Below are positions 1,047-55,550 of a stretch of 64,000 nucleotides of DNA, piece after piece (positions within the stretch are counted from its first letter, which is position 1; each line of letters starts with the position of its first letter). The DNA is from Escherichia coli (GTDB lineage: Bacteria > Pseudomonadota > Gammaproteobacteria > Enterobacterales > Enterobacteriaceae), in NCBI RefSeq assembly GCF_016903815.1, contig NZ_CP069973.1; one strand, given 5' to 3'. The position numbers and the translations under genes were made by a program. A model generated the notes under the pieces. It saw only the letters and a program-made list of their open reading frames with translations. It had not been told where the DNA came from and ran no database searches.

Positions 1047-2453
1047 TTAATCCAGCCATTCGGTATGGAACACACCGTCTTTATCAATGCGCTTATAAGT
1101 ATGCGCACCGAAATAGTCACGCTGTGCCTGGATCAGGTTCGCAGGCAGAACAGCGGCACGGTAGCTGTCATAATAGGCAACCGCAGCGGCGAAGGTCGGA
1201 ACCGGGATACCGTTCTGTACTGCATATGCGACGACATCGCGCAGCGCCTGCTGGTAGTCATCGGCAATTTGCTTGAAGTACGGAGCCAGCAGCAGGTTAG
1301 CGATCTGCGGATTTTCGGCATAAGCATCGGTGATTTTCTGCAGGAACTGCGCACGGATGATGCAACCAGCACGGAAAATCTTAGCGATTTCGCCGTAATT
1401 CAGATCCCAGTTGTACTCTTCAGACGCCGCACGCAGTTGAGAGAAACCCTGAGCGTAAGAAACGATTTTACCCAGATACAGCGCACGACGAACTTTCTCG
1501 ATGAACTCACCTTTGTCGCCAGCTGGCTGCGCTTGCGGGCCATAGAGAACTTTAGATGCGGCAACACGCTGCTCTTTCAGAGAAGAGATATAACGTGCAA
1601 ACACAGACTCGGTAATCAGCGACAGCGGTTCGCCGAGATCCAGCGCGCTCTGGCTAGTCCATTTACCGGTACCTTTGTTAGCCGCTTCATCCAGGATCAT
1701 ATCAACCAGGTAGTTACCGTCTTCATCTTTTTTAGTGAAGATGTCTTTGGTGATGTCGATCAGGTAGCTGCTCAGTTCACCGTTATTCCACTCGGTAAAG
1801 GTCTGTGCCAGTTCTTCGTTAGAAAGATTCAGGCCGCCTTTCAGGAGAGAATAGGCTTCAGCAATCAGTTGCATATCACCGTATTCAATACCGTTGTGAA
1901 CCATCTTCACATAGTGACCTGCGCCATCGGCACCAATATAGGTAACGCATGGCTCACCGTCTTCAGCTACTGCGGCGATTTTGGTCAGGATCGGTGCAAC
2001 CAGTTCATAGGCTTCTTTCTGTCCGCCAGGCATAATGGAAGGACCTTTCAGCGCACCTTCTTCACCGCCGGAAACACCGGTACCGATGAAGTTAAAGCCT
2101 TCTGCAGAAAGCTCACGGTTACGACGAATGGTGTCCTGGAAGAAGGTATTACCACCATCAATGATGATGTCACCTTTATCGAGGTATGGCTTAAGGGAAT
2201 CAATAGCAGCATCCGTGCCTGCACCTGCTTTCACCATTAACAGGATGCGACGAGGCGTTTCCAGAGATTCAACAAACTCTTTCACCGTATAGTAAGGAAC
2301 CAGTTTCTTGCCTGGATTTTCAGCAATCACTTCTTCAGTCTTCTCACGGGAACGGTTGAAAATAGAGACGGTATAACCACGGCTTTCGATGTTGAGCGCA
2401 AGGTTGCGCCCCATCACTGCCATACCGACTACGCCGATCTGTTGCTTTGACAT
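1047..2453 (-). CDS. gnd: 6-phosphogluconate dehydrogenase, decarboxylating
   Basis: 468 aa ORF; [27 protein letters not shown]... is the classic Gnd N-terminus and the length matches. Confidence 0.95.
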
Positions 2454-2547
2454 TGTTTACTCCTGTCAGGGAAAATTTCTTATAGTAAATGTTATATTAT
2501 AAAAGACTATTCTATTTTATCAAAAAGAATAACTAGATAGGTAATAA

Positions 2548-3567
2548 TTAATCATCTGAATATCCATTGGGGTTTTGCACTTGCCATTTCCAAGCATCTC
2601 GAATCATATCAGCTAAATCTTTTTTAGCTCTCCAATTTAATTCTTCATAAGCTTTTGAAGGATCTGACCAACATTCAGCGATGTCACCGGGACGCCTACC
2701 AACAAATATATGTGGTACAGCGACATTTGTTATTTGTTCAAAAGTTTTTATTAAGTCAAGAACCGAATAACCTTTTCCAGTACCTAAATTATAGATCTTA
2801 CAATTCTCCCCTTCATTCGATGCCTTTACCGCTGCAACATGTCCTTCGGCAAGATCCATAACATGAATATAATCACGCACACCAGTACCATCATGGGTAT
2901 TATAATCATTACCGAAAATATGAACCTCATTGAGTTTACCTATTGCGGTTTGGCAAATATATGGCATAAGATTATTAGGTTTTCCTCTTGGATCTTCCCC
3001 TAATAATCCTGATGTGTGAGCCCCAACAGGATTAAAATAACGCAAAATAGTACACCGAAATGAACTATTCGAATAACATATATCCGATAGAATTTTTTCT
3101 ATTATTAGTTTAGATGTACCATATGGATTAGTTGTATGTCCAACTTCATTTGACTCTTTTATAGGAATACTCTTTGGTGATCCATATACTGTAGCAGATG
3201 AACTAAAAATAAATCTCATTACATCATGTCGTAACATCTCTTCAAGCAATGCTAGAGTTCCGACGACATTATTATCATAATAACTTATAGGTGAACTAAT
3301 CGATTGATCTACTGATTTTAAACCGGCAAAATGTATAACAGCATCAATATTATAACTATTAAAGATTTGATTAAGTACTGTTCTATTTCTAATGTCACCT
3401 TCTATAAATGATGCCTTTCTTAAGCAAATATTGTTAATCCTTTTTAATACTGATAAATGCGAGTTAGATAAATTATCAATTATGATAACTTCGTAGCCAG
3501 CATCTAATAACGACACGACAGTATGAGAACCTATATACCCTAATCCACCAGTTACAAGCAATTTCAT
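2548..3567 (-). CDS. UDP-hexose 4-epimerase (GalE family), O-antigen cluster
   Basis: 339 aa; MKLLVTGGLGYIGSHTVVSLL Rossmann motif, YGxxK (YGTSK) catalytic motif, GalE-like throughout; AT-rich. Confidence 0.8.
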   Translation of the reverse strand: MKLLVTGGLGYIGSHTVVSLLDAGYEVIIIDNLSNSHLSVLKRINNICLRKASFIEGDIRNRTVLNQIFNSYNIDAVIHFAGLKSVDQSISSPISYYDNNVVGTLALLEEMLRHDVMRFIFSSSATVYGSPKSIPIKESNEVGHTTNPYGTSKLIIEKILSDICYSNSSFRCTILRYFNPVGAHTSGLLGEDPRGKPNNLMPYICQTAIGKLNEVHIFGNDYNTHDGTGVRDYIHVMDLAEGHVAAVKASNEGENCKIYNLGTGKGYSVLDLIKTFEQITNVAVPHIFVGRRPGDIAECWSDPSKAYEELNWRAKKDLADMIRDAWKWQVQNPNGYSDD

Positions 3568-3605
3568 TTTATCTTGACCTCACTTAGACTTTAATAGTTC
3601 TCACG

Positions 3606-4343
3606 TTAGACTCGTTTTAACAAGGCATGAAAAAAATAATAAATGATATATTTAATTGAATGTAAGAATGAAAGGCGACGGTTTTTTCTATAAATATTCC
3701 ACTGCCAGGCTATTGCCTTAATTTTATTTGAGGATAAAGAATGTTCATTTACACGATATTTAGCTAAACACTCTTGTATACAATAAGCTCTATTGGTCAC
3801 TGATATTATATCCAACCACATTATATAATCTTCATGTCCTTCATTTACTTGGTTAAATATACCCAGTTTTTCCCTATTATATATACCTGTCAGGTTACCA
3901 ATAAAATTACTTTTAAGCATCATATCATAAGTTATTATTTCTGGTGAAATTCGAGCATTAATATATTCTTTTTCATTTGAAAATGTTATAAAATTACTGC
4001 ATACCAAATCCCAACCGTCTTCTAATTTCTCCATCTGTAAAGAAAGTTTGTTTTTAATCCACATATCATCACTATCTATAAAGGCAACATAATTGCCTTT
4101 ACATATATTAAGTGCAATATTTCTTGATTCCGCGACGCCTTTGTTATTTCTGTTTTTAATTACTGTTATTCTTTCATCTTGAAATTTGCCAGCTAATTCG
4201 AATGTATTATCATGCGATGCATCATCGATAATATATAGATGCCAATCCTTAAAGTCTTGATCAATTACAGAGTTTACAGCTTGTTCTATTGTTGCAGACG
4301 CATTATAAGCAGGCATTATTATCGAAACAGTTTCTCTTACCAT
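3606..4343 (-). CDS. Glycosyltransferase, family 2-like (O-antigen)
   Basis: 245 aa; N-terminal IIMPAYNASATIEQAVNSV...YIIDDASHDNT and a DSDD motif typical of GT-A fold GT2 enzymes. Confidence 0.7.
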   Translation of the reverse strand: MVRETVSIIMPAYNASATIEQAVNSVIDQDFKDWHLYIIDDASHDNTFELAGKFQDERITVIKNRNNKGVAESRNIALNICKGNYVAFIDSDDMWIKNKLSLQMEKLEDGWDLVCSNFITFSNEKEYINARISPEIITYDMMLKSNFIGNLTGIYNREKLGIFNQVNEGHEDYIMWLDIISVTNRAYCIQECLAKYRVNEHSLSSNKIKAIAWQWNIYRKNRRLSFLHSIKYIIYYFFHALLKRV

Positions 4344-4346
4344 ATT

Positions 4347-5399
4347 TTATATTCCAAGTAGTGATATCCATTTATGAATAATTGCATCAGCATTGTATTT
4401 CCTTGAATTTTTAATAGCATTAGTACTAAAAATGTTTGATAAATTATCATCAGAAGTCAATTTTCTTAACTTCTGTATAAAAAGCTCTCTGTTTTTAAAA
4501 GGGATAAGAAAACCATTAACATTATCAGTAATAATTTCTGCCGGGCCAGTTGGACAATCATATGCAACACTCGGGATTCCAAAACTCTGGGACTCAATCA
4601 ACACCATAGGTAATCCTTCATATAACGAAGTCATCGCATATATTTTGGCAGCATTATAGTAATTGCAAATTTCATCTGTTGTTTTAAACATTTTGATAGA
4701 TGACATTCCAGCTATGGCTTTTTCAAGAATCCTTTTATTAGGGCCATCACCAATGATATATAACGTCCAATTAGGTATATTTGCCTCATGCCAAATTTCA
4801 ATCAACTCATTAAAATTCTTTTGCTCTGTAAATCGTCCAACAGCGATCACAATATTTTCCCGTTGGTCATATGGTTTTATTATGTTATTGGATGTATCAA
4901 ATGGATTAATATTTGGTATTTGAATAACGTTTTTAATACCATATTTTGTAGTTAATAAATTATAATCATGCGAAGTTAAAACAATTACTTTTTTTGCTAT
5001 GTAATATGAAAATATTTTTATTAGCTGTATTGCTTTTTTAAAACTATTTAAGCCTACATGCTCATGGAAATATATATCATGCAGCCTGATAGCTTTCGCT
5101 AATATTCCACACTCCAGCGATAAGCGTCCCATCGACTCAACAATAACTTTATGTTTATTCTTCTTACAAAAAATCAAATAGGACAATAGAGAATAATAGC
5201 GCCATCCATTTCCATATTTAACAGAGATTTTATTTGATAAGAAATAGAAAGGATTGGCATGTTTTTTTTGTAATGAGAAAATTTCGACCTCAGCATTTTC
5301 TATATTACTTGATAATATATTTGATAATAATGCTGTAACTCTTTCTGTACCGCCCTTATTAGTAATATCAGAAATAATGAAACTAATTTTATTTTTCAT
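4347..5399 (-). CDS. Glycosyltransferase, GT-B fold (GT4-like) (O-antigen)
   Basis: 350 aa; C-terminal TSLYEGLPMVLIESQSFGIPSVAYDCPTGPAEII resembles the EX7E donor-binding region of GT4 enzymes. Confidence 0.65.
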   Translation of the reverse strand: MKNKISFIISDITNKGGTERVTALLSNILSSNIENAEVEIFSLQKKHANPFYFLSNKISVKYGNGWRYYSLLSYLIFCKKNKHKVIVESMGRLSLECGILAKAIRLHDIYFHEHVGLNSFKKAIQLIKIFSYYIAKKVIVLTSHDYNLLTTKYGIKNVIQIPNINPFDTSNNIIKPYDQRENIVIAVGRFTEQKNFNELIEIWHEANIPNWTLYIIGDGPNKRILEKAIAGMSSIKMFKTTDEICNYYNAAKIYAMTSLYEGLPMVLIESQSFGIPSVAYDCPTGPAEIITDNVNGFLIPFKNRELFIQKLRKLTSDDNLSNIFSTNAIKNSRKYNADAIIHKWISLLGI

Positions 5400-6328
5400 T
5401 TTTTGTTTCTCATAATATTACGAACTATTAGTCTTCTATACAGATATTGCATATTATAAATTGATAACAATACTGTAAGAAATATAAAGAAAAATCTTCT
5501 ATACATTGATTTTTGTTGCACTGCTAAAGCTAAACAACGACTAGAGGTAGAATGGAGTTTCTCGATAAGAATAGAGGAACTTAGCTTTTTATGCATACTC
5601 AAAACATCAAAATTATCTCTCCCTCTTCTAATTCTAAGTTTATGGAGTTTTAACACGTAATTATGCGCTTTTCTTTGAAGTAAACTAGCAACACTTGCAC
5701 TATTGCCCTGTCGATGTCTAATGTACATTAGATACTCAGGGTGATTATCACATTTATAACCCCGATCCAAAGCTCTTAATATAAAATCATAATCTTCAGC
5801 ATAAGGTATTTCCCTATAACCTTGTAACTCATCATATACCTCCCTCTTAGCTAACCAAATGTGAGCAATTGGAGAGACATATTTAGACACCTTTTTAACT
5901 ATATCTTCTCCAACAGGTGAGATACTTTTTGTCAAATGCTCACCTATCTCATTAATTGAGTGCATTTGACATCCAACAATATCTAAATCATTCGCCTCGA
6001 GATAATGCAATTGTTTTTCAATTCTATCAGGTGCTGCGATATCATCCCCGTCAAATCGCGCAATATATTGCCCTTTAGCTAACAATAACCCCTGATTTAA
6101 CGATTTTACAATTTTCTGATTTTCCTTATTATATATTATTTTAATCCTACTATCTGTACGCGCTAGATTTTGTATTTTCTCCCGCGTATTATCAGTTGAA
6201 TAATCATCAATTATTATTATTTCTATTTTTTTATAAGTTTGTTCAATAATACTATTTATGGCTTCATCAATCCATGCTCCGACATTATACGTCGGAATTA
6301 ATATTGAAATTAATGGTTCATTTTTCAT
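5396..6328 (-). CDS. Glycosyltransferase, family 2-like (O-antigen)
   Basis: 310 aa; ISILIPTYNVGAWIDEAINSIIEQTYKKIEIIIIDDYSTDNT GT2 signature; 4-nt overlap with the downstream gene. Confidence 0.7.
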   Translation of the reverse strand: MKNEPLISILIPTYNVGAWIDEAINSIIEQTYKKIEIIIIDDYSTDNTREKIQNLARTDSRIKIIYNKENQKIVKSLNQGLLLAKGQYIARFDGDDIAAPDRIEKQLHYLEANDLDIVGCQMHSINEIGEHLTKSISPVGEDIVKKVSKYVSPIAHIWLAKREVYDELQGYREIPYAEDYDFILRALDRGYKCDNHPEYLMYIRHRQGNSASVASLLQRKAHNYVLKLHKLRIRRGRDNFDVLSMHKKLSSSILIEKLHSTSSRCLALAVQQKSMYRRFFFIFLTVLLSIYNMQYLYRRLIVRNIMRNKK

Positions 6329-7455
6329 AACTTTTGATTACCTAAATATCTGGTTTCGTTATAAATAACAGCATTCAATATAAATAAAAATGGTGAATAT
6401 GCACCAAATAGCGAAATACCACTGATACATACTGGCAACCAAATATACAATGAATTAAAATTTGTCTTTTTAAGGCTATAAAAAATAAAAGTTATAAAAA
6501 GAAAAGACCCAATAAAACCAAATTCTAAAACTAAAGTTACATATATGTTATGTGCAAAAATCCCTAGTAATTGTTCTGTGTTTCCAAGCCCAACACCAAA
6601 CATATGTGTCATAAGTGATTGCGTAGTGTAAAATTCAAATGCTTGGCTAATAATGTAGAATTTAGAATTAAAACTCCCATCAATATTTGAATAATTGCTA
6701 TTTTCAAATAAGTAGCTTATTGACATGTAAATAAATACACATATGACAAATAAAAAAACAAGTGCTGAACGCTTTCCTATCTTTGCCTTATTATTCAGAA
6801 CATATAACATAGCAAGCAGCGTTACCATTGCAGCTCTTGACATTGTTAAAAATAGCAGAATATATGTTATGTACCTTGTATATTTGAAGTTATAGATTTT
6901 ATTATTTTTAAGAAACAATAAAAAACCTAAGATGGAAATATCTATTAATGCTGTAAAATTTGAATCAAAGTAGAATAAACTTTTTTTGAATGCATATAAA
7001 ATACCTTCTGATAGATTACCTATAATGACTCTAGTAATCAACTCCAGAAACATGAACATTACAAAAAACATCAAAAAATTTTTATAACATTTAATTCGTG
7101 TATCATAGTTTAGCACCATAAATACTTCATTTACTCCAACGCTAATAACCATCGAGTAAAAAAACAGGAAGGGTGTGATGTAATTTGGAGCTTCAGGATA
7201 CCCTGTTGTTTGGGTTTTATAATAGATACCTATAACCTGACACAGAAGAATTGCGAAAGCAAAAATAATAGTTACCATGCTAAACTTTGAAATTTTTGCC
7301 TTAACAAATATTAGCATTATTATAATACTTAACAACCCTGCACCATATATATAAGCAGGATTAATAGCAAGAGAATTTATGCTCAAAAATGCACAACATA
7401 AAAATGCCGTAAGATACTTACCGGATCTTTGTTTGTTAATTTGATTTTCGTTCAT
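6325..7455 (-). CDS. wzy: O-antigen polymerase
   Basis: 376 aa, very hydrophobic with many predicted TM segments and a large loop, in the canonical wzy position of a Wzx/Wzy cluster; low sequence conservation is expected for Wzy. Confidence 0.65.
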   Translation of the reverse strand: MNENQINKQRSGKYLTAFLCCAFLSINSLAINPAYIYGAGLLSIIIMLIFVKAKISKFSMVTIIFAFAILLCQVIGIYYKTQTTGYPEAPNYITPFLFFYSMVISVGVNEVFMVLNYDTRIKCYKNFLMFFVMFMFLELITRVIIGNLSEGILYAFKKSLFYFDSNFTALIDISILGFLLFLKNNKIYNFKYTRYITYILLFLTMSRAAMVTLLAMLYVLNNKAKIGKRSALVFLFVICVFIYMSISYLFENSNYSNIDGSFNSKFYIISQAFEFYTTQSLMTHMFGVGLGNTEQLLGIFAHNIYVTLVLEFGFIGSFLFITFIFYSLKKTNFNSLYIWLPVCISGISLFGAYSPFLFILNAVIYNETRYLGNQKL

Positions 7456-8464
7456 TCAAATTACTCGAATATGGTGACTGTAGAATTTCATTAATAAGAT
7501 GATTAATATCATACTTTCTAAGTATATTTTGCTCTATAATTACATTATTTTTTTTTAAAAATGATTTTAACGCATCGATATTACAATCCTGCTCCTTATA
7601 TATGAATATATTATCTGCATTATAAAAATCATATTCGGTAATACTTTCGTTATTTGTTATTAACTTTTTATTATAGAATAGGGCTTCCAATGTTCTAATT
7701 GTCAGACCTCCTTGTCCCGGTTGAACAATTTCAAGAATAGCTGTTGTTTGAAATAATTTATCAAGATACTCGTCATAATTCATTGCATTTTTTGCTAATA
7801 GTCTCTCACATTCATCATAATGCTTATTTTTATCAGGCAAAACACTAATTGAAAAGCTCAAGGAAGCATCGTCTAATAACTTTGCAAAGGTATTTAAAAG
7901 TTCAAGCCGCCCTTTATCTACCCCAATAAAGAAAATATCGAACATTACAGGATTGGTTAATTCCTCACACAGTTTTTTATTTAATACTTGACGACTAAAT
8001 TCCAATGAGTAAACTTGGGGATGATAATTTAGTTTATATTTAACCGAGTCATTATAATCAAACGTCCAAACTTGAACCCCAGTAATTTTTAATGTGATTA
8101 ATAGAATCTTAAACTCTATTTCTGAGATGTTCAATGTTCGTCTAGGATTCCATAACCAAATGGCTTGATTGGCACAAAACGAAAACTTATATACGCAAGA
8201 AGATATTCCTTTATAATCCTCTATACCAAAATAAATTGCATGATCATTTTTTGAGTGAATTTTCCTTTTTATATACGCAATGACAATCAAAAATAATGGT
8301 TTTATCCTTGATTTATACAAATTGACAAGAATATTTTTAGTTGCGCAAATATTTGTGATTTCAGTTAAATTATAAAAATATATTTTTTCCGAAGATAACT
8401 TTGAAAAAATAATCTCCGTTAAAAAATAATCATTTTTGACCAAATGTGTTATTTTTTTTACCAT
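7436..8464 (-). CDS. Putative glycosyltransferase, WecF (Fuc4NAc transferase, GT56)-like
   Basis: 342 aa; weak similarity by eye to WecF (KYKLNYHP versus RYKLFYPL; C-terminal GGLTIRTLEALFYNKKLITN). Assignment tentative. Confidence 0.4.
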   Translation of the reverse strand: MVKKITHLVKNDYFLTEIIFSKLSSEKIYFYNLTEITNICATKNILVNLYKSRIKPLFLIVIAYIKRKIHSKNDHAIYFGIEDYKGISSCVYKFSFCANQAIWLWNPRRTLNISEIEFKILLITLKITGVQVWTFDYNDSVKYKLNYHPQVYSLEFSRQVLNKKLCEELTNPVMFDIFFIGVDKGRLELLNTFAKLLDDASLSFSISVLPDKNKHYDECERLLAKNAMNYDEYLDKLFQTTAILEIVQPGQGGLTIRTLEALFYNKKLITNNESITEYDFYNADNIFIYKEQDCNIDALKSFLKKNNVIIEQNILRKYDINHLINEILQSPYSSNLNERKSN

Positions 8465-9708
8465 GATTTATATATGCCCCGAGATGCTACAAGTAAAATA
8501 ACGAAATCTAAACTGACTCTAATTGTCCACGCATATGCAGCCCCTATTACACCAAAATGTATAATAAAGAAATACAATCCAACAAGGTAAGGAATTATTT
8601 CAATGCAATGTATTAATGCCGTGATTTTCGCTTTACCTGCAGCCTGGATTGTAGCAAATGGAATCTGAGCATATGAATTAAATAAAAATCCTATCAGAAG
8701 AACTTGCAAAATATAAGTTGAATTTTCAGCATATTCTTTACCTAACCATATATTTAGGATTGTATACGATAATCCCACTCCAATAATTACAGCAGGTATG
8801 CAAACCATGCTGAGCATAATATAGGCTATTGTTTCATTTTTTTTTCTTTCCGAAAGTGTCTTTGCAGCACTTAATTTTGGAAATAATGCTCTTGCCAAAG
8901 CCCAGGGAATATTAATCAATCTATTAATAAATTCTGAAGGCGCTATATAAAACCCAACGCTTTTTGCCCCCAGAAGATTAGATAATATAAACCGATCAAA
9001 ATAACTCATGACCGGACTAATAATATTACTTACAGTAATCCAGCCACCAAACTTTAACAGTCGAAACAAAACTTGCTTATGAAATCTAATACCCGCTGTT
9101 AATACTATTTCTTTTGCACAATAATATGAAATAATTAACGAAACCATTCGACCACAAACTAATCCAATCATTGCACATGTCAGGGTTGGATGTAGAATGA
9201 TGAAAAAAGCTGGAAGCCCCGCTACTAATGAACTACTAATACATCGTTGAATATTTATATTAAAAAAATCTTCCATGCCCTCCAAATATGATACAAATAT
9301 CTGATTTAGCAAAAATAAAGGTATAGTTATAGTCAGTATCTTAAACGAAGATACAACATCATCCTTATATCTAGGGCTAACCTTTAACAAAGACACTAGG
9401 TTATCAATGTTCATAAACAAAAGAGCTGCACCAACTAAACCCAGTATAATTATAGCAAAATTAGATGTTGCAATAATTTTATTTAATTCAGATTTATTAG
9501 TTCTATTAAACGCAATTTCTCTAATAACAGCTCTTGTTAATCCTGCGTCAAAAATACTGGCATAACCAACAATAGCTGTACAAAGAGCAAACAAGCCAAA
9601 CCTTTCTGCTCCCAATTCACGAGCTATATATCCTAATGCAGGCAAAGCGACAATGGTTGGAATAATGTATCCACCAAAGTTCCATATACTATTTTTTAAT
9701 AAACTCAT
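8458..9708 (-). CDS. wzx: O-antigen flippase
   Basis: 416 aa polytopic membrane protein with a polysaccharide-biosynthesis (MOP) type N-terminus, directly downstream of rmlC. Confidence 0.7.
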   Translation of the reverse strand: MSLLKNSIWNFGGYIIPTIVALPALGYIARELGAERFGLFALCTAIVGYASIFDAGLTRAVIREIAFNRTNKSELNKIIATSNFAIIILGLVGAALLFMNIDNLVSLLKVSPRYKDDVVSSFKILTITIPLFLLNQIFVSYLEGMEDFFNINIQRCISSSLVAGLPAFFIILHPTLTCAMIGLVCGRMVSLIISYYCAKEIVLTAGIRFHKQVLFRLLKFGGWITVSNIISPVMSYFDRFILSNLLGAKSVGFYIAPSEFINRLINIPWALARALFPKLSAAKTLSERKKNETIAYIMLSMVCIPAVIIGVGLSYTILNIWLGKEYAENSTYILQVLLIGFLFNSYAQIPFATIQAAGKAKITALIHCIEIIPYLVGLYFFIIHFGVIGAAYAWTIRVSLDFVILLVASRGIYKSW

Positions 9709-9714
9709 ATTTTC

Positions 9715-10263
9715 CTAAAAATAATCAATTTTGTTAATGTGAGATGCACATTTATCTTTAGTGGAAAGGATAACATTTATATTCAATTCGGGCCAATCAA
9801 TGTCAATTGTATTATCATTCCAAATAATATTTCTTTCATTTTCTTTATTGTAATAATTATTCGTCTTATATAAAACCTCAGCAGTGTTAGATAATACTAA
9901 AAATCCATGAGCAAACCCTTCTGGAATCCATAATTGATGCTTATTCTCAGCAGATAAGTTCACCCCAACCCATTTTCCAAAGGTAGGCGAAGATTTACGA
10001 ATATCAACCGCAACATCAAAAACTTCACCGACCATACAGCGCACCAGTTTTGCTTGAGCATAGGGTTCTAACTGGTAATGAAGACCACGTAAAACACCTT
10101 TACTTGACTTCGAATGGTTATCCTGAACAAACTTAACTTTACGGCCTACCGCTTCTTCGAAAACCTTCTGGTTAAAGCTCTCAAAAAAGAAACCGCGCTC
10201 GTCGCTAAAAACTTTTGGTTCAAAAATCAGTACATCTGGAATTTCTGTTTTAATTACGTTCAT
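9715..10263 (-). CDS. rmlC: dTDP-4-dehydrorhamnose 3,5-epimerase
   Basis: 182 aa; MNVIKTEIPDVLIFEPKVFSDERGFF...VQDNHSKS...GVLRGLHYQ is RmlC/RfbC. Confidence 0.9.
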   Translation of the reverse strand: MNVIKTEIPDVLIFEPKVFSDERGFFFESFNQKVFEEAVGRKVKFVQDNHSKSSKGVLRGLHYQLEPYAQAKLVRCMVGEVFDVAVDIRKSSPTFGKWVGVNLSAENKHQLWIPEGFAHGFLVLSNTAEVLYKTNNYYNKENERNIIWNDNTIDIDWPELNINVILSTKDKCASHINKIDYF

Positions 10264-10267
10264 TTTA

Positions 10268-11146
10268 TTAATAACCTTTAATCATTTTGAGCAGATACTG
10301 ACCATAAGCATTTTTTTTCAGCGGTTCAGCTAATACTTTCACCTGCTCAGCATCAATAAACCCTTTACGGTAAGCAATTTCTTCCGGGCAGGAAACTTTC
10401 AACCCCTGACGCTCTTCAATTGTAGCAATGAAGTTGCTTGCTTCAATAAGACTTTGATGTGTCCCCGTGTCCAGCCATGCATAACCACGCCCCATCATGG
10501 CAACGGATAAACGCCCCTGTTCCATATAAATACGGTTAATATCGGTAATTTCCAGTTCACCACGGGCAGAAGGCTGAAGGTTTTTCGCCATTTCCACAAC
10601 GTCGTTATCATAGAAATAAAGCCCGGTTACCGCATAATTACTTTTTGGTTGTAGCGGTTTTTCTTCAAGGCTAATTGCCGTACCGTTTTTATCAAACTCA
10701 ACGACACCATAGCGTTCAGGATCATTAACGTGATAGGCAAATACCGTTGCACCACTCTCTTTGTTAACAGCGGCATCCATTAACTTCGGCAGGTCGTGAC
10801 CGTAGAAGATATTATCACCAAGTACCAAAGCACAATCATCACCACCGATAAACTCTTCACCGATGATAAATGCCTGCGCAAGACCATCCGGACTCAGTTG
10901 CACTTTGTACTGAAGATTCAGGCCCCACTGGCTCCCGTCACCCAGCAGTTGTTGAAAACGAGGAGTATCCTGTGGCGTACTGATAATCAAAATATCGCGA
11001 ATACCCGCCAACATCAGTGTAGAGAGCGGGTAATAGATCATCGGTTTATCATAAATAGGTAATAGCTGTTTACTGACAGCCATAGTCACAGGATAAAGAC
11101 GAGTACCAGAACCGCCCGCTAAAATAATACCTTTACGCGTTTTCAT
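10268..11146 (-). CDS. rmlA: Glucose-1-phosphate thymidylyltransferase
   Basis: 292 aa; [21 protein letters not shown] nucleotidyltransferase motif, RmlA/RfbA. Confidence 0.9.
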
Positions 11147-11203
11147 TTCATCATTCCTTTTAATTCATCTTGCTCCACCATCACGAACAAGATGCAAAAA
11201 CTA

Positions 11204-12103
11204 TTAAATAGCTGTAGTCGTAAATAATTCGTTGAGCATGCGTTTCACGCCAATCTGCCAGTCAGGCAAGACAAGCGCAAAGTTCTGCTGAAATTTTTCT
11301 GTATCAAGGCGAGAGTTATGCGGACGACGAGCTGGTGTAGGATAGGCTGTTGTTGGTACTGCGTTGAGCTTGTTGAGAGCAAGGGCAATGCCTGCTTTGC
11401 GCGCCTCTTCAAAAACGAGCGCAGCATAATCGTGCCAGGTTGTGGTACCACTGGCTACCAAATGGTACAAGCCTGCGACTTCCGGTTTATTCAGTGCTAC
11501 ACGAATGGCATGTGCCGTACAATCAGCCAGCAACTCTGCGCCAGTTGGCGCACCAAACTGATCATTAATAACGGCTAATTCTTCACGCTCTTTTGCCAGA
11601 CGTAACATTGTCTTGGCAAAATTGTTTCCTTTACCTGCATATACCCAGCTGGTCCGGAAAATAAGATGCTTCGCGCAATGTTCCTGTAACGCTTTTTCTC
11701 CGGCTAACTTGGTTTCACCGTAAACATTTAGCGGTGCGGTTGCATCCGTCTCCAGCCATGGCGTGTCGCCATTTCCAGGGAATACGTAGTCAGTTGAGTA
11801 ATGAATTACCCAAGCCCCAACTTCATTAGCCGCTTTTGCAATCGCTTCAACACTTGTCGCATTGAGTAATTGTGCAAATTCGGGTTCTGACTCAGCCTTA
11901 TCTACCGCGGTATGAGCAGCAGCATTAACAATAACGTCAGGACGAATTTTTTTGACGGTTTCAGCCACACCTTCTGGGTTACTAAAATCACCACAATAAT
12001 CAGTAGAGTGAACATCAAGAGCAATCAAATTACCCAAAGGTGCCAGCGCACGCTGTAGTTCCCAACCTACCTGCCCTGTTTTGCCGAAAAGGAGGATATT
12101 CAT
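11204..12103 (-). CDS. rmlD: dTDP-4-dehydrorhamnose reductase
   Basis: 299 aa; [24 protein letters not shown] is RmlD/RfbD. Confidence 0.9.
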   Translation of the reverse strand: MNILLFGKTGQVGWELQRALAPLGNLIALDVHSTDYCGDFSNPEGVAETVKKIRPDVIVNAAAHTAVDKAESEPEFAQLLNATSVEAIAKAANEVGAWVIHYSTDYVFPGNGDTPWLETDATAPLNVYGETKLAGEKALQEHCAKHLIFRTSWVYAGKGNNFAKTMLRLAKEREELAVINDQFGAPTGAELLADCTAHAIRVALNKPEVAGLYHLVASGTTTWHDYAALVFEEARKAGIALALNKLNAVPTTAYPTPARRPHNSRLDTEKFQQNFALVLPDWQIGVKRMLNELFTTTAI

Positions 12104-13188
12104 TACTGGCGGCCCTCATAGTTCTGTTCAATCCACGATTGATAGGCACCACTTTTCACATTATCAACCCATTTTGTATTGGACAGGTACCATTCCACTG
12201 TCTTCCGAATCCCGCTCTCAAACGTTTCCTGTGGTTTCCAACCCAATTCGCGGCTAATCTTCTCAGCATCAATCGCATAACGGCGATCATGTCCCGGGCG
12301 GTCGGCAACATAAGTAATTTGCTCACGATAAGATTTCTCTTTCGGTACAATCTCATCCAACAAATCACAAATAGTGAGCACTACATCGATGTTTTTCTTT
12401 TCGTTGTGTCCACCAATGTTATAAGTTTCACCCGCTTTACCTTCGGTTACGACGGTATATAACGCACGCGCATGATCTTCAACATACAGCCAGTCACGAA
12501 TTTGATCCCCTTTGCCATAAATAGGTAATGCCTTACCTTCCAGAGCATTAAGAATTACTAGTGGAATCAATTTTTCCGGAAAGTGATAAGGACCGTAGTT
12601 ATTCGAACAGTTAGTCACAATGGTCGGTAAACCATAGGTACGTTTCCACGCGCGGACTAAATGATCGCTGGATGCTTTTGATGCGGAATAAGGGCTGCTT
12701 GGCGCGTAAGCTGTCGTCTCAGTAAATAAGGGTAATTCTTCGTTATTATTTACTTCATCTGGATGAGGCAAATCACCATAGACTTCGTCAGTAGAAATAT
12801 GATGAAAACGGAAGCTATTTTTCTTGTCGCTATCAAGAGCAGACCAGTAATTGCGAGCGGCTTCCAAAAGGACATAAGTACCAACAATATTGGTTTCAAT
12901 AAATGCCGCAGGACCTGTAATTGAACGGTCAACATGGCTTTCAGCAGCCAGGTGCATCACTGCATCCGGCTGATGCTGAGCAAAAATCCGTGCCATTGCA
13001 GCAGCATCGCAAATATCCGCATGTTCAAAAATATAGCGTTCAGAATCAGAAACATCAGCAAGTGATTCCAGGTTTCCGGCGTACGTTAATTTATCGACAT
13101 TAACAACACTATCCTGCGTATTATTTATAATGTGACGAACTACAGCAGAACCAATAAATCCTGCGCCACCAGTAACAAGTATCTTCAC
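12103..13188 (-). CDS. rmlB: dTDP-glucose 4,6-dehydratase
   Basis: 361 aa; [21 protein letters not shown]...YxxxK SDR motif, RmlB/RfbB. Confidence 0.9.
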
Positions 13189-13263
13189 TCTTTTATTCCA
13201 TATTACTTCAGAGCATGCAGTGAAATAAGCGGCTCTTAGTTTGATTAATAGAGGTATTAATGC

Positions 13264-13275
13264 ACGCTACCGCCC
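13264..13275 (-). promoter_or_regulatory. ops element (GGCGGTAGCGTG) within a JUMPstart sequence upstream of the rml/O-antigen operon
   Basis: Exact 12-mer CACGCTACCGCC on the plus strand, which is GGCGGTAGCGTG in the direction of rmlB transcription, in the galF-rmlB intergenic region. Confidence 0.75.
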
Positions 13276-13559
13276 CTGGCTTTACTGCTACCAGTGCACT
13301 GCATGCATGTCTACGATGTGACGAGCGTTACCCACTCGCGCTTAGCTCGAAAAATTCAAACGCTAATTGTCTTACCAATCCGCTCTGGAAACAAGGAAAA
13401 TCCTGGAAAACTTTGACTAAAATCCTATTGCTAACTCGTTGTTATTCTGATTGTTTATATAAAACAACGGCAGGAATATTCGCAGCAAATTACTTTCGCC
13501 ACGAATCTTCACTGCCGTTATAATTTTCTTATCAACCGTTACATTCGGTCAGATTTTCA

Positions 13560-14453
13560 TTATTCGCTTAACAGCTTCTCAATACCTTTACGGAACTTCG
13601 CCCCTTCTTTCAGGTTGCGCAGTCCATACTTCACAAACGCCTGCATATAACCCATTTTTTTACCGCAGTCGTAGCTGTCACCTGTCATCAGCATGGCATC
13701 AACGGACTGTTTTTTCGCCAATTCAGCAATGGCATCAGTCAGTTGAATACGTCCCCATGCACCAGGCTGAGTGCGTTCAAGTTCCGGCCAAATATCGACA
13801 GAAAGCACATAGCGACCAACGGCCATGATGTCTGAGTCCAGTGTTTGCGGCTGATCCGGTTTTTCGATGAATTCAACAATGCGGCTGACTTTACCTTCGC
13901 AATCCAGCGGTTCTTTGGTCTGAATAACAGAGTATTCAGAGAGGTCACCCGGCATACGTTTTGCCAGCACCTGGCTACGACCCGTTTCGTTGAAACGTGC
14001 AATCATGGCAGCAAGGTTGTAGCGCAGCGGGTCGGCGCTGGCGTCGTCGATCACAACGTCTGGCAGCACCACGACAAATGGATTGTCACCAATGGCGGGT
14101 CGTGCACACAAAATGGAGTGACCTAAACCTAAAGGTTCGCCCTGACGCACGTTCATAATTGTCACGCCCGGCGGGCAAATGGACTGTACTTCCGCCAGCA
14201 GTTGGCGCTTCACGCGCTGCTCAAGGAGAGATTCTAATTCATAAGAGGTGTCGAAGTGGTTTTCGACCGCGTTCTTGGACGCGTGAGTCACCAGGAGGAT
14301 TTCTTTGATCCCTGCAGCCACAATCTCGTCAACAATGTACTGAATCATTGGCTTGTCGACGATCGGTAGCATCTCTTTGGGTATCGCCTTAGTGGCAGGC
14401 AACATATGCATCCCAAGACCCGCTACCGGTATAACTGCTTTTAAATTCGTCAT
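13560..14453 (-). CDS. galF: UTP-glucose-1-phosphate uridylyltransferase paralog GalF
   Basis: 297 aa; [43 protein letters not shown] is GalF/GalU family, in the conserved position upstream of the O-antigen cluster. Confidence 0.9.
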
Positions 14454-14684: not shown

Positions 14685-15680
14685 TTACTCAGAAACAAAC
14701 GTTATGTCGTCTTTTTTGGCATGGACGAATTCATACTGCAGAGTTCGATCCAGACCTTGCGACAGCGTATACGGTGCCACAAAACCTGAAGAATGCACTT
14801 TCGTTGCGTCAAACTGTGTTGTTGCGCAGAATTTTTTCACGCGCACAGAGCTGACAGCGTATTTTTTGCCCGTAATTTTGCTCAGGATATCAAAGCAATA
14901 TCCACCCAGCATTCCTAGTGGGTAAGGCAAGTGCATAGAAGGGATCTTTTTGTTCAGGCTTTGTTCAACTTCAGCAACCAACTGGTTCATGTTCAGGTCT
15001 GGCTTATCAACATAGTTATAAACCTCATAACCTGCGGCAACATTCTTCAGTTTGTACTTGATAAACTCAACAATGTTTCCAACATAAGCCATGGACTTAT
15101 AGTTAGTCCCTGCGCCCACCATCATAAACTTGCCGCCAGCGATCTGTTTCAGCAAGTTATAGACGTTACCGCGGTTGCGTTCACCGAAGATAACGGTAGG
15201 ACGGATGATAGTTAATGAACGTTCTGTTGGTGCTTTGTTATACCATTCACGTAGCACTTCCTCTGCCTGCCACTTACTTTTGCCGTAGTGGTTGAAAGGA
15301 TCGTGTGGATGGTTTTCGTCAGGGTTGTGTTTGTTCAAACCATAAATAGCAACGGAACTGGTAAAGATGATATTTTTAACGCCATTTTTTTCCATGGCCG
15401 CCAGCACATTGCGGGTACCCTGAACGTTGACATCATAATAGAGAGAAGTAGGGCTGACGTCATCGCGGTGTTCCGCTGCCAGTAGTACAACAGTGTCAAA
15501 ACCGGCTAACGCCTGGTCGAGTGCCTGTTGATCACGAACATCGCCAATCTGTGTGATTTCTGGATAAAAGTGGCTCTGCTGTTTGTCCAGGTTCTTGATA
15601 TTAAAGTCAGCAATTGCCGTTTCAAGTAGTCGGGTTCCTACGAATCCGGAAGCTCCTATGAGCAAAACGTTATCGTTCAT
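14685..15680 (-). CDS. gne: NAD-dependent sugar epimerase, Gne/Z3206-like
   Basis: 331 aa; MNDNVLLIGASGFVGTRLLE Rossmann motif, YGKSK catalytic motif; located between galF and wcaM, where gne sits in some E. coli serogroups (absent in K-12). Confidence 0.7.
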   Translation of the reverse strand: MNDNVLLIGASGFVGTRLLETAIADFNIKNLDKQQSHFYPEITQIGDVRDQQALDQALAGFDTVVLLAAEHRDDVSPTSLYYDVNVQGTRNVLAAMEKNGVKNIIFTSSVAIYGLNKHNPDENHPHDPFNHYGKSKWQAEEVLREWYNKAPTERSLTIIRPTVIFGERNRGNVYNLLKQIAGGKFMMVGAGTNYKSMAYVGNIVEFIKYKLKNVAAGYEVYNYVDKPDLNMNQLVAEVEQSLNKKIPSMHLPYPLGMLGGYCFDILSKITGKKYAVSSVRVKKFCATTQFDATKVHSSGFVAPYTLSQGLDRTLQYEFVHAKKDDITFVSE

Positions 15681-38925: not shown

Positions 38926-38937
38926 CACGCTACCGCC
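38926..38937 (-). promoter_or_regulatory. ops element (GGCGGTAGCGTG) within a JUMPstart sequence in the wza leader
   Basis: Exact CACGCTACCGCC on the plus strand, about 180 bp upstream of the wza start; the same 21-mer context (cacgctaccgcccctggcttt) recurs at 13264. Confidence 0.75.
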
Positions 38938-54739: not shown

Positions 54740-54885
54740 GGAGTGAGGGTTAGGGAGAGGTTTCCCCCTCCCCCTGGTGTTCTTAGTAAGCCTGGAAGCT
54801 AATCACTAAGAGTATCACCAGTATGATGACGTGCTTCATCATAACCCTTTCCTTATTAAAAGCCCTCTTCTCCGGGAGAGGGTTT
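54740..54885 (+). ncRNA. sibA: Sib antisense sRNA, copy 1 (antitoxin of ibsA); ends approximate
   Basis: Plus-strand promoter-like TTGACA (54709..54714) and CATAAT-like -10, transcript fully antisense to the ibsA ORF, hairpin ccctcttctccgggagaggg at 54863..54882. Confidence 0.55.
54783..54842 (-). CDS. ibsA: Type I toxin IbsA (19-aa hydrophobic peptide)
   Basis: Reverse complement translates MMKHVIILVILLVISFQAY-stop, identical to my recollection of IbsA. Confidence 0.8.
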   Translation of the reverse strand: MMKHVIILVILLVISFQAY

Positions 54886-55077
54886 CCCGTTTCAGCGTCC
54901 CGCTGAAATCGTCGGCTTACCTCCTTTCGCCCTGAATGCAGTCTATCGCTAACGCGTGAACAAAATAGTTTCCTCTGTGATTATTGCGTAACGACTCGCA
55001 AAGAATATTTGCTGGCAGGATCGCAGACTGCAAAGCCTGCAGATTGACAATCTTATCGTGAAGGCATAATTTCAGGA

Positions 55078-55220
55078 GTGAGGGTAGAGCGGGGTTTCCC
55101 CCGCCCTGGTAGTCTTAGTAAGCGGGGAAGCTTATGACTAAGAGCACCACGATGATGAGTAGCTTCATCATGACCCTTTCCTTATTTAAGGCCCCTTCCT
55201 CGGGAGGGGCTTTCCCGTTT
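55078..55220 (+). ncRNA. sibB: Sib antisense sRNA, copy 2; ends approximate
   Basis: Second repeat unit with TTGACA at 55044..55049 and a CATAAT -10; antisense to ibsB. Confidence 0.55.
55114..55170 (-). CDS. ibsB: Type I toxin IbsB (18-aa hydrophobic peptide)
   Basis: Reverse complement translates MMKLLIIVVLLVISFPAY-stop. Confidence 0.8.
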
Positions 55221-55405
55221 CAGCGTCCCGCTGAAATCGTCGACTTACCTCCTTTCGCCCTGTATGCAGTCTATCGCTGACTTGCGGATAAAATAGTTTC
55301 CAGTGTGATTATTGCGTAACGTCTCGCAAAGAATATTTGCTGGCAGGATCGCAGACTGCAAAGCCTGCAGATTGACAATCTTATCGTGAAGGCATACTTT
55401 CAGGA

Positions 55406-55550
55406 GTGAGGGTAGAGCGGGGTTTCCCCCGCCCTGGTAGTCTTAGTATGCTGGGTAGCTAATCACTAAGAGCACCACGATGATGATCCACTTCATCATG
55501 ACCCTTTCCTTATTTAAGGCCCCTTCCTCGGGAGGGGCTTTCCCGTTTCA
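55406..55550 (+). ncRNA. Sib-family antisense sRNA, copy 3; ends approximate
   Basis: Third repeat unit with TTGACA at 55372..55377 and CATACT -10-like hexamer; antisense to the third ibs ORF. Confidence 0.5.
55443..55499 (-). CDS. Ibs-family type I toxin, third copy (variant peptide)
   Basis: Reverse complement translates MMKWIIIVVLLVISYPAY-stop; same architecture as IbsA/IbsB with substitutions at positions 4-5 and 15. Confidence 0.7.
   Translation of the reverse strand: MMKWIIIVVLLVISYPAY

Follow-up and report, generated by a model that had tools for sequence, protein, structure and literature searches.

Which O antigen is specified by the galF-gnd locus of this Escherichia coli chromosome, and what do its individual genes encode? 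The window, which is the whole stretch of 64,000 nucleotides that was analysed (contig NZ_CP069973.1), contains seven consecutive open reading frames (ORFs) at positions 2548-9708, all on the minus strand and flanked by gnd and rmlC (Table 1). An earlier note on this DNA had described an AT-rich cluster of the Wzx/Wzy type joined to rmlBDAC, with seven low-GC genes between gnd and rmlC, and our analysis bears out both the class and the position of the block. The hallmarks of Wzx/Wzy-dependent synthesis are present, with a flippase of the MOP/PST family and a polytopic polymerase, and without a wzm/wzt ABC transporter. The remaining five products of the cluster are soluble enzymes.

The GC content of the block was 0.304, compared to 0.516 elsewhere in the window. 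In sliding-window calculations, 2548-9708 had essentially the lowest GC of any 7,161-bp segment of the window (minimum 0.300, start 2701; median 0.515), in agreement with the contrast to the flanks that had been reported before. Taken singly, the seven genes had GC values of 0.27-0.34 and GC3 values of 0.19-0.25, against GC3 values of 0.52-0.55 for gnd and galF. The block was probably acquired horizontally long ago, as O-antigen clusters usually are, and its low GC would reflect this. Low GC was also found past wzx, with a value of 0.348 for rmlC that rises through rmlA, rmlD and rmlB. The overlaps of 4-20 nt described in the earlier note exist at four of the six junctions (4, 4, 20 and 7 nt) and not at the others, which are gaps; the gapped junctions measured 3, 6 and 38 nt. 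Two plus-strand ORFs within the GT4 gene (4393-4659 and 4663-4923) are antisense and without evident significance.

Table 1. Features of the O-antigen locus and its flanks, in coordinates of the window.
Feature	Position	Strand	Details
gnd	1047-2453		chromosomal flank, gnd end of cluster
GalE-family UDP-hexose 4-epimerase, annotated galE	2548-3567	-	TIGR01179 galE, 452 bits
Family 2 glycosyltransferase, 245 aa	3606-4343	-	PF00535, 113 bits; soluble
GT4-type (Glycos_transf_1) glycosyltransferase, 350 aa	4347-5399	-	PF00534, 112 bits
Second family 2 glycosyltransferase, 310 aa	5396-6328	-	PF00535, 132 bits
wzy, O102 O-antigen polymerase, 376 aa	6325-7455	-	O102 family name; polytopic membrane protein, GRAVY 0.74
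WaaS/CpsH-family glycosyltransferase, 342 aa, fourth transferase	7436-8464	-	NF053598
wzx, O102 O-antigen flippase, 416 aa	8458-9708	-	PF01943, 107 bits; UniProt A0A0A8J674; holds O102 PCR target
Published O102-specific wzx PCR amplicon, in silico	9172-9624		453 bp; primers 9607-9624 (-) and 9172-9189 (+)
rmlC, rmlA, rmlD, rmlB	9715-13188	-	dTDP-L-rhamnose pathway; 5' part of cluster operon
rmlC	9715-10263	-	equivalog, 280 bits (cutoff 156)
JUMPstart, 39 bp, with ops element GGCGGTAG (13267-13274)	13263-13301	-	leader upstream of rmlB; pattern match
galF	13560-14453		other flank of O-antigen locus
gnu	14685-15680	-	RefSeq product name at identical locus; Epimerase family

Serogroup of the cluster

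The block is almost certainly the gene cluster for the O102 antigen of E. coli; it occupies the customary site between galF and gnd, on a chromosome of ST405 type. All of its bases (7,161/7,161) were identical in more than 100 complete E. coli genomes (105/5,426), whose wzx and wzy products bear the RefSeq name "O102 family"; one of these genomes, H132, is given as O102:H6 in its depositor's title. The wzy-wzx segment was found at 99% identity or more in 105 of the 5,426 genomes and at 95-99% in one, and the other genomes had at most 80% identity over at most 11% of the query; no other similar wzy occurred among the 5,426. A full-length cluster at 95-99% identity occurs in one genome. Proteins with exactly these Wzx and Wzy sequences were each encoded on at least 1000 contigs, under O102 names. 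NCBIfam holds no HMM for O102 Wzx or O102 Wzy, and the "O102 family" names were presumably given by PGAP through a non-HMM rule. Because there is no such HMM, we confirmed the names by exact-sequence look-up and by in silico PCR, in which the O102 wzx primers (PMC7403468 supplement) matched exactly and gave a product of the published size. The galF-gnd location, examined as a feature of the O102 cluster, was confirmed as well.

The O102 cluster is thus already described and ordinary, and does not represent an unknown serogroup. The structure and gene cluster of O102 were published in 2012 (Perepelov et al., Carbohydr Res 361:73, as cited in PMC7685785), and the cluster annotated as O102 in RefSeq (genotype Og102 of typing schemes) shares its DNA, Wzx/Wzy proteins, galF-gnd site and PCR target with the one studied here. 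Sequence comparison with the clusters annotated as O102 in RefSeq detected no difference. Among other rmlBDAC-led Wzx/Wzy clusters, those of O18, O4, O25 and O147 share the operon architecture, and their wzx genes match the one studied here at 69-74% identity over short stretches. They are nevertheless different serogroups: only 4-11% of the wzy-wzx segment is similar, and their wzy genes have no similarity to this one. The earlier note had left the serogroup undetermined and called the cluster strain-specific. The first statement is superseded by the assignment to O102, which DNA, Wzx/Wzy proteins and PCR target all give, and the second is misleading for a block found unchanged in so many genomes. 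The same note held that the cluster would be routine if wzx and wzy matched a well-characterised serogroup exactly; the match to O102 is exact, and the finding is therefore routine.

The O102 phenotype is a prediction from genotype, and a silent or defective cluster would leave the strain rough or O-non-typeable. Expression cannot be read from DNA, and the related genome F5446 is interrupted inside wzy, so that loss does occur in the lineage (in at least one genome). We nevertheless consider a silent cluster very unlikely here: the seven ORFs and rmlBDAC are intact and do not differ from those of more than 100 genomes, the JUMPstart/ops leader is intact, and the cluster is free of insertion sequences, with the IS200C copy located outside it, between ugd and gnd. 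A new, untyped serogroup, which could appeal to the lack of an assignment in the earlier note and to low GC with a unique wzx/wzy pair (though these are typical of any serogroup-specific cluster), can be dismissed with near certainty given the 100% nucleotide identity to more than 100 O102-annotated genomes, the exact O102 Wzx/Wzy proteins and PCR result, and the identical cluster in a genome labelled O102:H6 by its depositor.

With O102 catalogued, its structure and gene cluster published and its sequence identical in more than 100 isolates, the locus has little weight as a discovery. Its value is practical only, in that the window can be labelled O102 and two annotation details corrected. 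The window matched clinical strain 222 without any difference over its entire length: positions 1-25000 were 100% identical, and positions 14408-64000 showed 0 mismatches. The serotype of ST405 is O102:H6 (PMC6331395), and the ST405-type background is that of a globally spread clone and multidrug-resistant extraintestinal lineage.

The terminal GalE-family epimerase

The GalE-family product of the cluster is 53% identical to GalE of E. coli K-12 and retains S124, Y149 and K153. At the gatekeeper position, which is Tyr299 in E. coli GalE, it has Cys within the motif DIAECWS, together with K84 and N199. Its best solved relatives are the group-2 bGalE structures 6K0I and 6K0G, the E. coli GalE Y299C mutant 1LRK, and human GALE. 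According to the gatekeeper rule, Cys or Ser instead of Tyr or Leu at the C5 pocket marks Gne/group-2 GalE enzymes; the Y299C substitution raises the UDP-GalNAc activity of E. coli GalE 230-fold, and the C307Y change abolishes that of the human enzyme (PMC6668579). The Cys gatekeeper therefore suggests that the product is probably a bifunctional Gne, which would interconvert UDP-GlcNAc and UDP-GalNAc as well as UDP-Glc and UDP-Gal, and so make UDP-GalNAc. The SDR fold, catalytic triad and small Cys gatekeeper are common to this protein, the group-2 GalE epimerases (human GALE and Bifidobacterium longum bGalE) and the clade A Gne proteins of Cunneen et al., such as Gne of Yersinia enterocolitica O:8. 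The O102 gene is annotated as GalE everywhere, and Gne activity is predicted for it here.

This prediction bears on the O102 repeat unit, which lacks GlcNAc and contains two GalNAc residues, one in the main chain and one in the side chain; gne was scored as absent from O102 and present in O130 (Cunneen et al. 2013). O130, placed with O102 in "group 1" of that study, likewise has main- and side-chain GalNAc without GlcNAc, and in principle needs both gnu and gne, as O102 does. O130 was scored gne-positive and O102 gne-negative, but the O102 cluster studied here does hold a gene of the GalE family whose product has a pocket of the Gne type. On balance, we favour the view that the O102 "galE" is the Gne listed as missing by Cunneen et al. 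(2013), and that the annotated name is wrong; the 2012 O102 paper may already have stated this identity.

A plain GalE confined to UDP-Glc and UDP-Gal, with UDP-GalNAc for the side chain coming from elsewhere, is a less probable reading, though one that we take seriously. The protein passes the GalE equivalog model at 452 bits, carries that name in every public source, and belongs to a serogroup that Cunneen et al. scored as lacking gne. Against a plain GalE, the gatekeeper is Cys and not Tyr, with the Y299C and C307Y substitutions as precedent (PMC6668579), and K84, N199 and C299 form the same pocket triad as in group-2 enzymes, with group-2 bGalE and the Y299C mutant as the best solved matches. 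Moreover, the non-initial GalNAc of O102 needs UDP-GalNAc, which the chromosome's housekeeping GalE is unable to supply. With a Gne to supply UDP-GalNAc, the genes present would agree with an O102 unit that contains two GalNAc residues. If true, the Gne reading would remove one of the seven exceptions to the gnu/gne rule of Cunneen et al., and current automatic annotation would misname the O102 "galE"; this would be a refinement of annotation inside a known cluster, and not a new system.

Glycosyltransferases and the proposed assembly pathway

Six of the gene identities proposed in the earlier note (GalE family, GT2, GT4, GT2, Wzy and Wzx) hold, and the seventh, a "WecF-like" protein, is replaced. 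BLASTP of this ORF against K-12 WecF gave an E value of 3.9, and the product lacks Glyco_transf_56, so we rejected WecF (GT56, Fuc4NAc transferase). The ORF had no Pfam match even at E ≤ 10. It scored 162 bits with the NF053598 WaaS/CpsH profile (cutoff 60), covering profile positions 8-317 of 318, and was 30% identical to K-12 WaaS over 152 aa (E 7e-20). The annotation "hypothetical/WecF-like" should thus be corrected to a WaaS/CpsH-type glycosyltransferase. With this protein as the fourth, the cluster contains four glycosyltransferases, in line with the estimate of about four made before. The best NCBIfam resemblance of the GT4 enzyme was to the alpha-1,4-GalNAc transferase PglH, at 117 bits, far under the cutoff of 600.

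The Wzy_C match of the polymerase (27.6 bits) fell under the Pfam gathering threshold of 31.7, and the role assigned to this protein therefore draws on its name in databases, its place in the cluster and its membrane topology. The shortfall is weak counter-evidence, since Wzy proteins diverge widely from one another.

All four rmlBDAC genes of the dTDP-L-rhamnose pathway are present, three by equivalog score (rmlA, 674 bits with a cutoff of 588; rmlD, 658 bits with a cutoff of 308; rmlC, Table 1) and rmlB by the name rfbB that RefSeq gives it at the identical locus. The JUMPstart leader reads cagtgcactggtagcagtaaagccaggggcggtagcgtg, and gnu lies upstream of galF. The role of Gnu has been described (PMC7685785 and PMC3682973).

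The scheme that follows is based on the families of the proteins and on the established Wzx/Wzy pathway; the JUMPstart/ops element in it was seen in the sequence itself. The cluster would be transcribed as one operon from the leader upstream of rmlB, with JUMPstart/ops recruiting RfaH for antitermination. WecA, encoded outside the window, would transfer GlcNAc-1-P onto undecaprenyl phosphate, and Gnu would convert this product by epimerisation into GalNAc-PP-Und, which carries the first sugar of the unit. RmlBDAC would provide dTDP-L-rhamnose. The GalE-family enzyme with its wide-pocket Cys299, most likely Gne, would supply UDP-GalNAc for the side-chain GalNAc, and may make UDP-Gal too. The O102 unit has a two-residue side branch (PMC7685785), and the four soluble glycosyltransferases (GT2, GT4, GT2 and WaaS/CpsH-type) are predicted to complete this branched unit. 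Wzx would then flip the finished unit and Wzy polymerise it, with WzzB setting chain length and WaaL ligating the polymer to lipid A-core; wzzB and waaL, like wecA, are outside the window. A scan for promoters and terminators was at chance level in the number of sites (54 promoter-like sites, with 52.2 expected, and 7 terminator-like sites, with 8.9 expected), and the sole notable site in it was the promoter-like site of gnd.

Assignment of the gnd-rmlC block to serogroup O102

The seven genes between gnd and rmlC (2548-9708, 7,161 bases) were described in an earlier note as an AT-rich Wzx/Wzy O-antigen cluster, which was left without a serogroup. Several independent lines of sequence evidence converge on O102. 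More than 100 complete E. coli chromosomes contain the same 7,161 bases at 100% identity, and the full block is present in 105 of 5,426 genomes. RefSeq names in these genomes include "O102 family O-antigen flippase" and "O102 family O-antigen polymerase", and one genome bears the depositor title O102:H6. We used the wzy-wzx segment as the query in a second, more sensitive search, which separated 105 genomes with at least 99% identity and one with 95-99% cleanly from the rest. All remaining matches fell below 80% identity, covered no more than 11% of the query and correspond to short patches of O147, O18, O4 and O25 wzx. The exact Wzx and Wzy proteins (UniProt A0A0A8J674 and A0A0A6ZER1) are each recorded under an O102 name in at least 1,000 contigs. 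Finally, a validated multiplex PCR includes O102-specific wzx primers that were positive with 4/4 O102 strains; these primers match exactly at 9607-9624 (-) and 9172-9189 (+), and the predicted 453-bp amplicon has the published size (PMC7403468 supplement). By all sequence criteria applied, the block is the O102 cluster itself and not a mere lookalike. The wzx/wzy pair is exactly that of O102, the outcome that, according to the earlier note, would make the cluster routine; it is already on record rather than new. What remains of value is the O102 assignment, the correction of a WecF label and the probable renaming of a GalE protein as Gne.

E. coli strain 222, isolated from urine in Boston, agrees with the whole window at every base: identity is 100% over 1-25000, and there are 0 mismatches over 14408-64000. 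PMC6331395 describes O102:H6 as the serotype of the ST405 phylogroup D lineage, which is multidrug-resistant and globally disseminated, and PMC7685785 cites a 2012 publication of the O102 structure and gene cluster (Perepelov et al.) and counts O102 as one of a small number of O units whose side branch has two residues. The lone complete genome with the full-length cluster at just 95-99% identity carries a divergent O102 allele that falls outside the near-clonal group. In the human isolate F5446 (NZ_CM153269.1), the O102 match ends about 64 nt within the 5' end of wzy (window position 7391) and does not include the wzx side. This break suggests that the polymerase region of F5446 is interrupted or deleted, and the strain is possibly a rough variant.

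Gene content and base composition

Coordinates and supporting matches for the O-antigen region
Feature	Coordinates	Strand	Evidence or location
gnd	1047-2453		flanks block beside epimerase gene
GalE-family epimerase gene	2548-3567	-	TIGR01179, 452 bits (NCBIfam)
GT2 gene	3606-4343	-	Pfam/NCBIfam
GT4-type transferase gene (Glycos_transf_1)	4347-5399	-	Pfam/NCBIfam
Second GT2 gene	5396-6328	-	Pfam/NCBIfam
wzy	6325-7455	-	sub-threshold Wzy_C, RefSeq name, hydrophobic polytopic product
WaaS/CpsH glycosyltransferase gene	7436-8464	-	NCBIfam model, K-12 WaaS match
wzx	8458-9708	-	Polysacc_synt, 107 bits
rmlC	9715-10263		flanks block beside wzx
JUMPstart, 39 bp, with ops element GGCGGTAG	13263-13301		galF-rmlB gap; textbook form
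gnu, RefSeq product "GlcNAc-PP-undecaprenol 4-epimerase"	14685-15680	-	between wcaM and galF, just upstream of galF

All seven minus-strand open reading frames were found where the earlier note had placed them, and their low GC was borne out. The block has a GC content of 0.304 compared to 0.516 in the remainder of the window, making it approximately the lowest-GC segment of its length anywhere in the 64 kb, and GC3 is 0.19-0.25 in its genes versus 0.52-0.55 in gnd and galF. The proposed overlaps of 4-20 nt hold for four junctions (4, 4, 20 and 7 nt), but the others are gaps of 3, 6 and 38 nt. The low GC continues beyond wzx into rmlC (0.348) before rising to 0.43-0.47 in rmlA, rmlD and rmlB (rml genes, 9715-13188). 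This climb places the compositional edge of the imported DNA inside the rml block rather than at the wzx/rmlC junction, the limit adopted in the earlier note. Low GC, translational overlaps and a JUMPstart are usual for rml-led Wzx/Wzy clusters, and the anatomy of the block shows no departure from this standard design.

Pfam and NCBIfam upheld the GalE-like, GT2, GT4-like, second GT2 and Wzx identities. Wzy scored 27.6 bits against Pfam Wzy_C, under the 31.7-bit threshold; Wzy and Wzx are both strongly hydrophobic and polytopic (GRAVY 0.74 and 0.84, respectively), and the other five products are soluble. The "WecF-like" label of the product encoded at 7436-8464 did not survive. A Pfam search returned no match even at E≤10 and comparison with K-12 WecF gave no similarity (E 3.9). 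Instead, the protein aligns with K-12 WaaS at E 7e-20, with 30% of 152 residues identical, and scores 162 bits against the NCBIfam WaaS/CpsH glycosyltransferase model, whose cutoff is 60. These matches make it the fourth glycosyltransferase of the block, in agreement with the "about four" transferases originally predicted.

GalE or Gne

Table S2 of Cunneen et al. (2013) lists one main-chain and one side-chain GalNAc in the O102 unit and no GlcNAc. Both gnu and gne, the latter encoding UDP-GlcNAc/UDP-GalNAc 4-epimerase, are therefore required for O102. That survey scored O102 as having gnu and lacking gne, which makes it one of just seven exceptions of this kind in 115 serogroups. The block epimerase has 53% identity to K-12 GalE and retains Ser124, Tyr149 and Lys153, and the exact protein is called GalE in every public name. 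However, it carries Cys at the gatekeeper position Tyr299 (DIAECWS versus DLPAYWA in K-12), and its pocket, with Lys84, Asn199 and this Cys, matches those of the bifunctional group-2 bGalE (K85/N200/C299) and human GALE (Cys307). According to PMC6668579, Y299C raises the UDP-GalNAc activity of E. coli GalE 230-fold, and the reverse change abolishes that of human GALE. The closest solved structures are bGalE, E. coli GalE Y299C and human GALE, with wild-type E. coli GalE ranking behind all three. We conclude that the gene is probably gne, its product supplying UDP-GalNAc for the side-chain residue. This role is an annotation point within a known cluster, and may already have been treated in the 2012 O102 paper.

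Predicted assembly pathway and neighboring elements

The gnu gene is absent from the earlier description. Its position upstream of galF is, according to PMC7685785, an accepted marker of GalNAc as first sugar, which implies that GalNAc initiates the O102 unit. Apart from steps visible directly in the sequence, we inferred the pathway from family assignments and the established scheme. The operon would start upstream of rmlB at the JUMPstart/ops leader. WecA, encoded outside the window, would initiate the unit as GlcNAc-PP-Und, which Gnu would turn into GalNAc-PP-Und. RmlBDAC would provide dTDP-L-rhamnose and the four transferases would complete the repeat unit, which Wzx is predicted to flip and Wzy then to polymerize. 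Chain-length control and ligation would fall to genes located elsewhere; wzzB lies just past the window start in a sequence-identical genome.

The 94-nt epimerase-gnd gap, the expected place for an independent gnd promoter, contains a near-consensus sigma-70 promoter-like site at 2496-2523 (-) (TTGATA, 16-nt spacer, TATAAT; 11/12 matches). An IS200C-family transposase gene (389-898, -; Y1_Tnp, 130 bits; RefSeq CDS 389-847) sits between ugd and gnd, directly outside the cluster, and a copy is annotated at the identical position in O102 strain 1579. At 38930-38937 (-), a second ops motif, GGCGGTAG, precedes wza by about 180 nt. The colanic acid cluster begins with this gene and extends to wcaM (~15838-38747 as annotated in the sequence-identical genome), and the motif is presumably the leader element of that operon. 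In the same annotation, the yegL-mdtA interval holds a tandem array of three type I toxin genes at ~54780-55500: ibsA and two others of the Ibs family.
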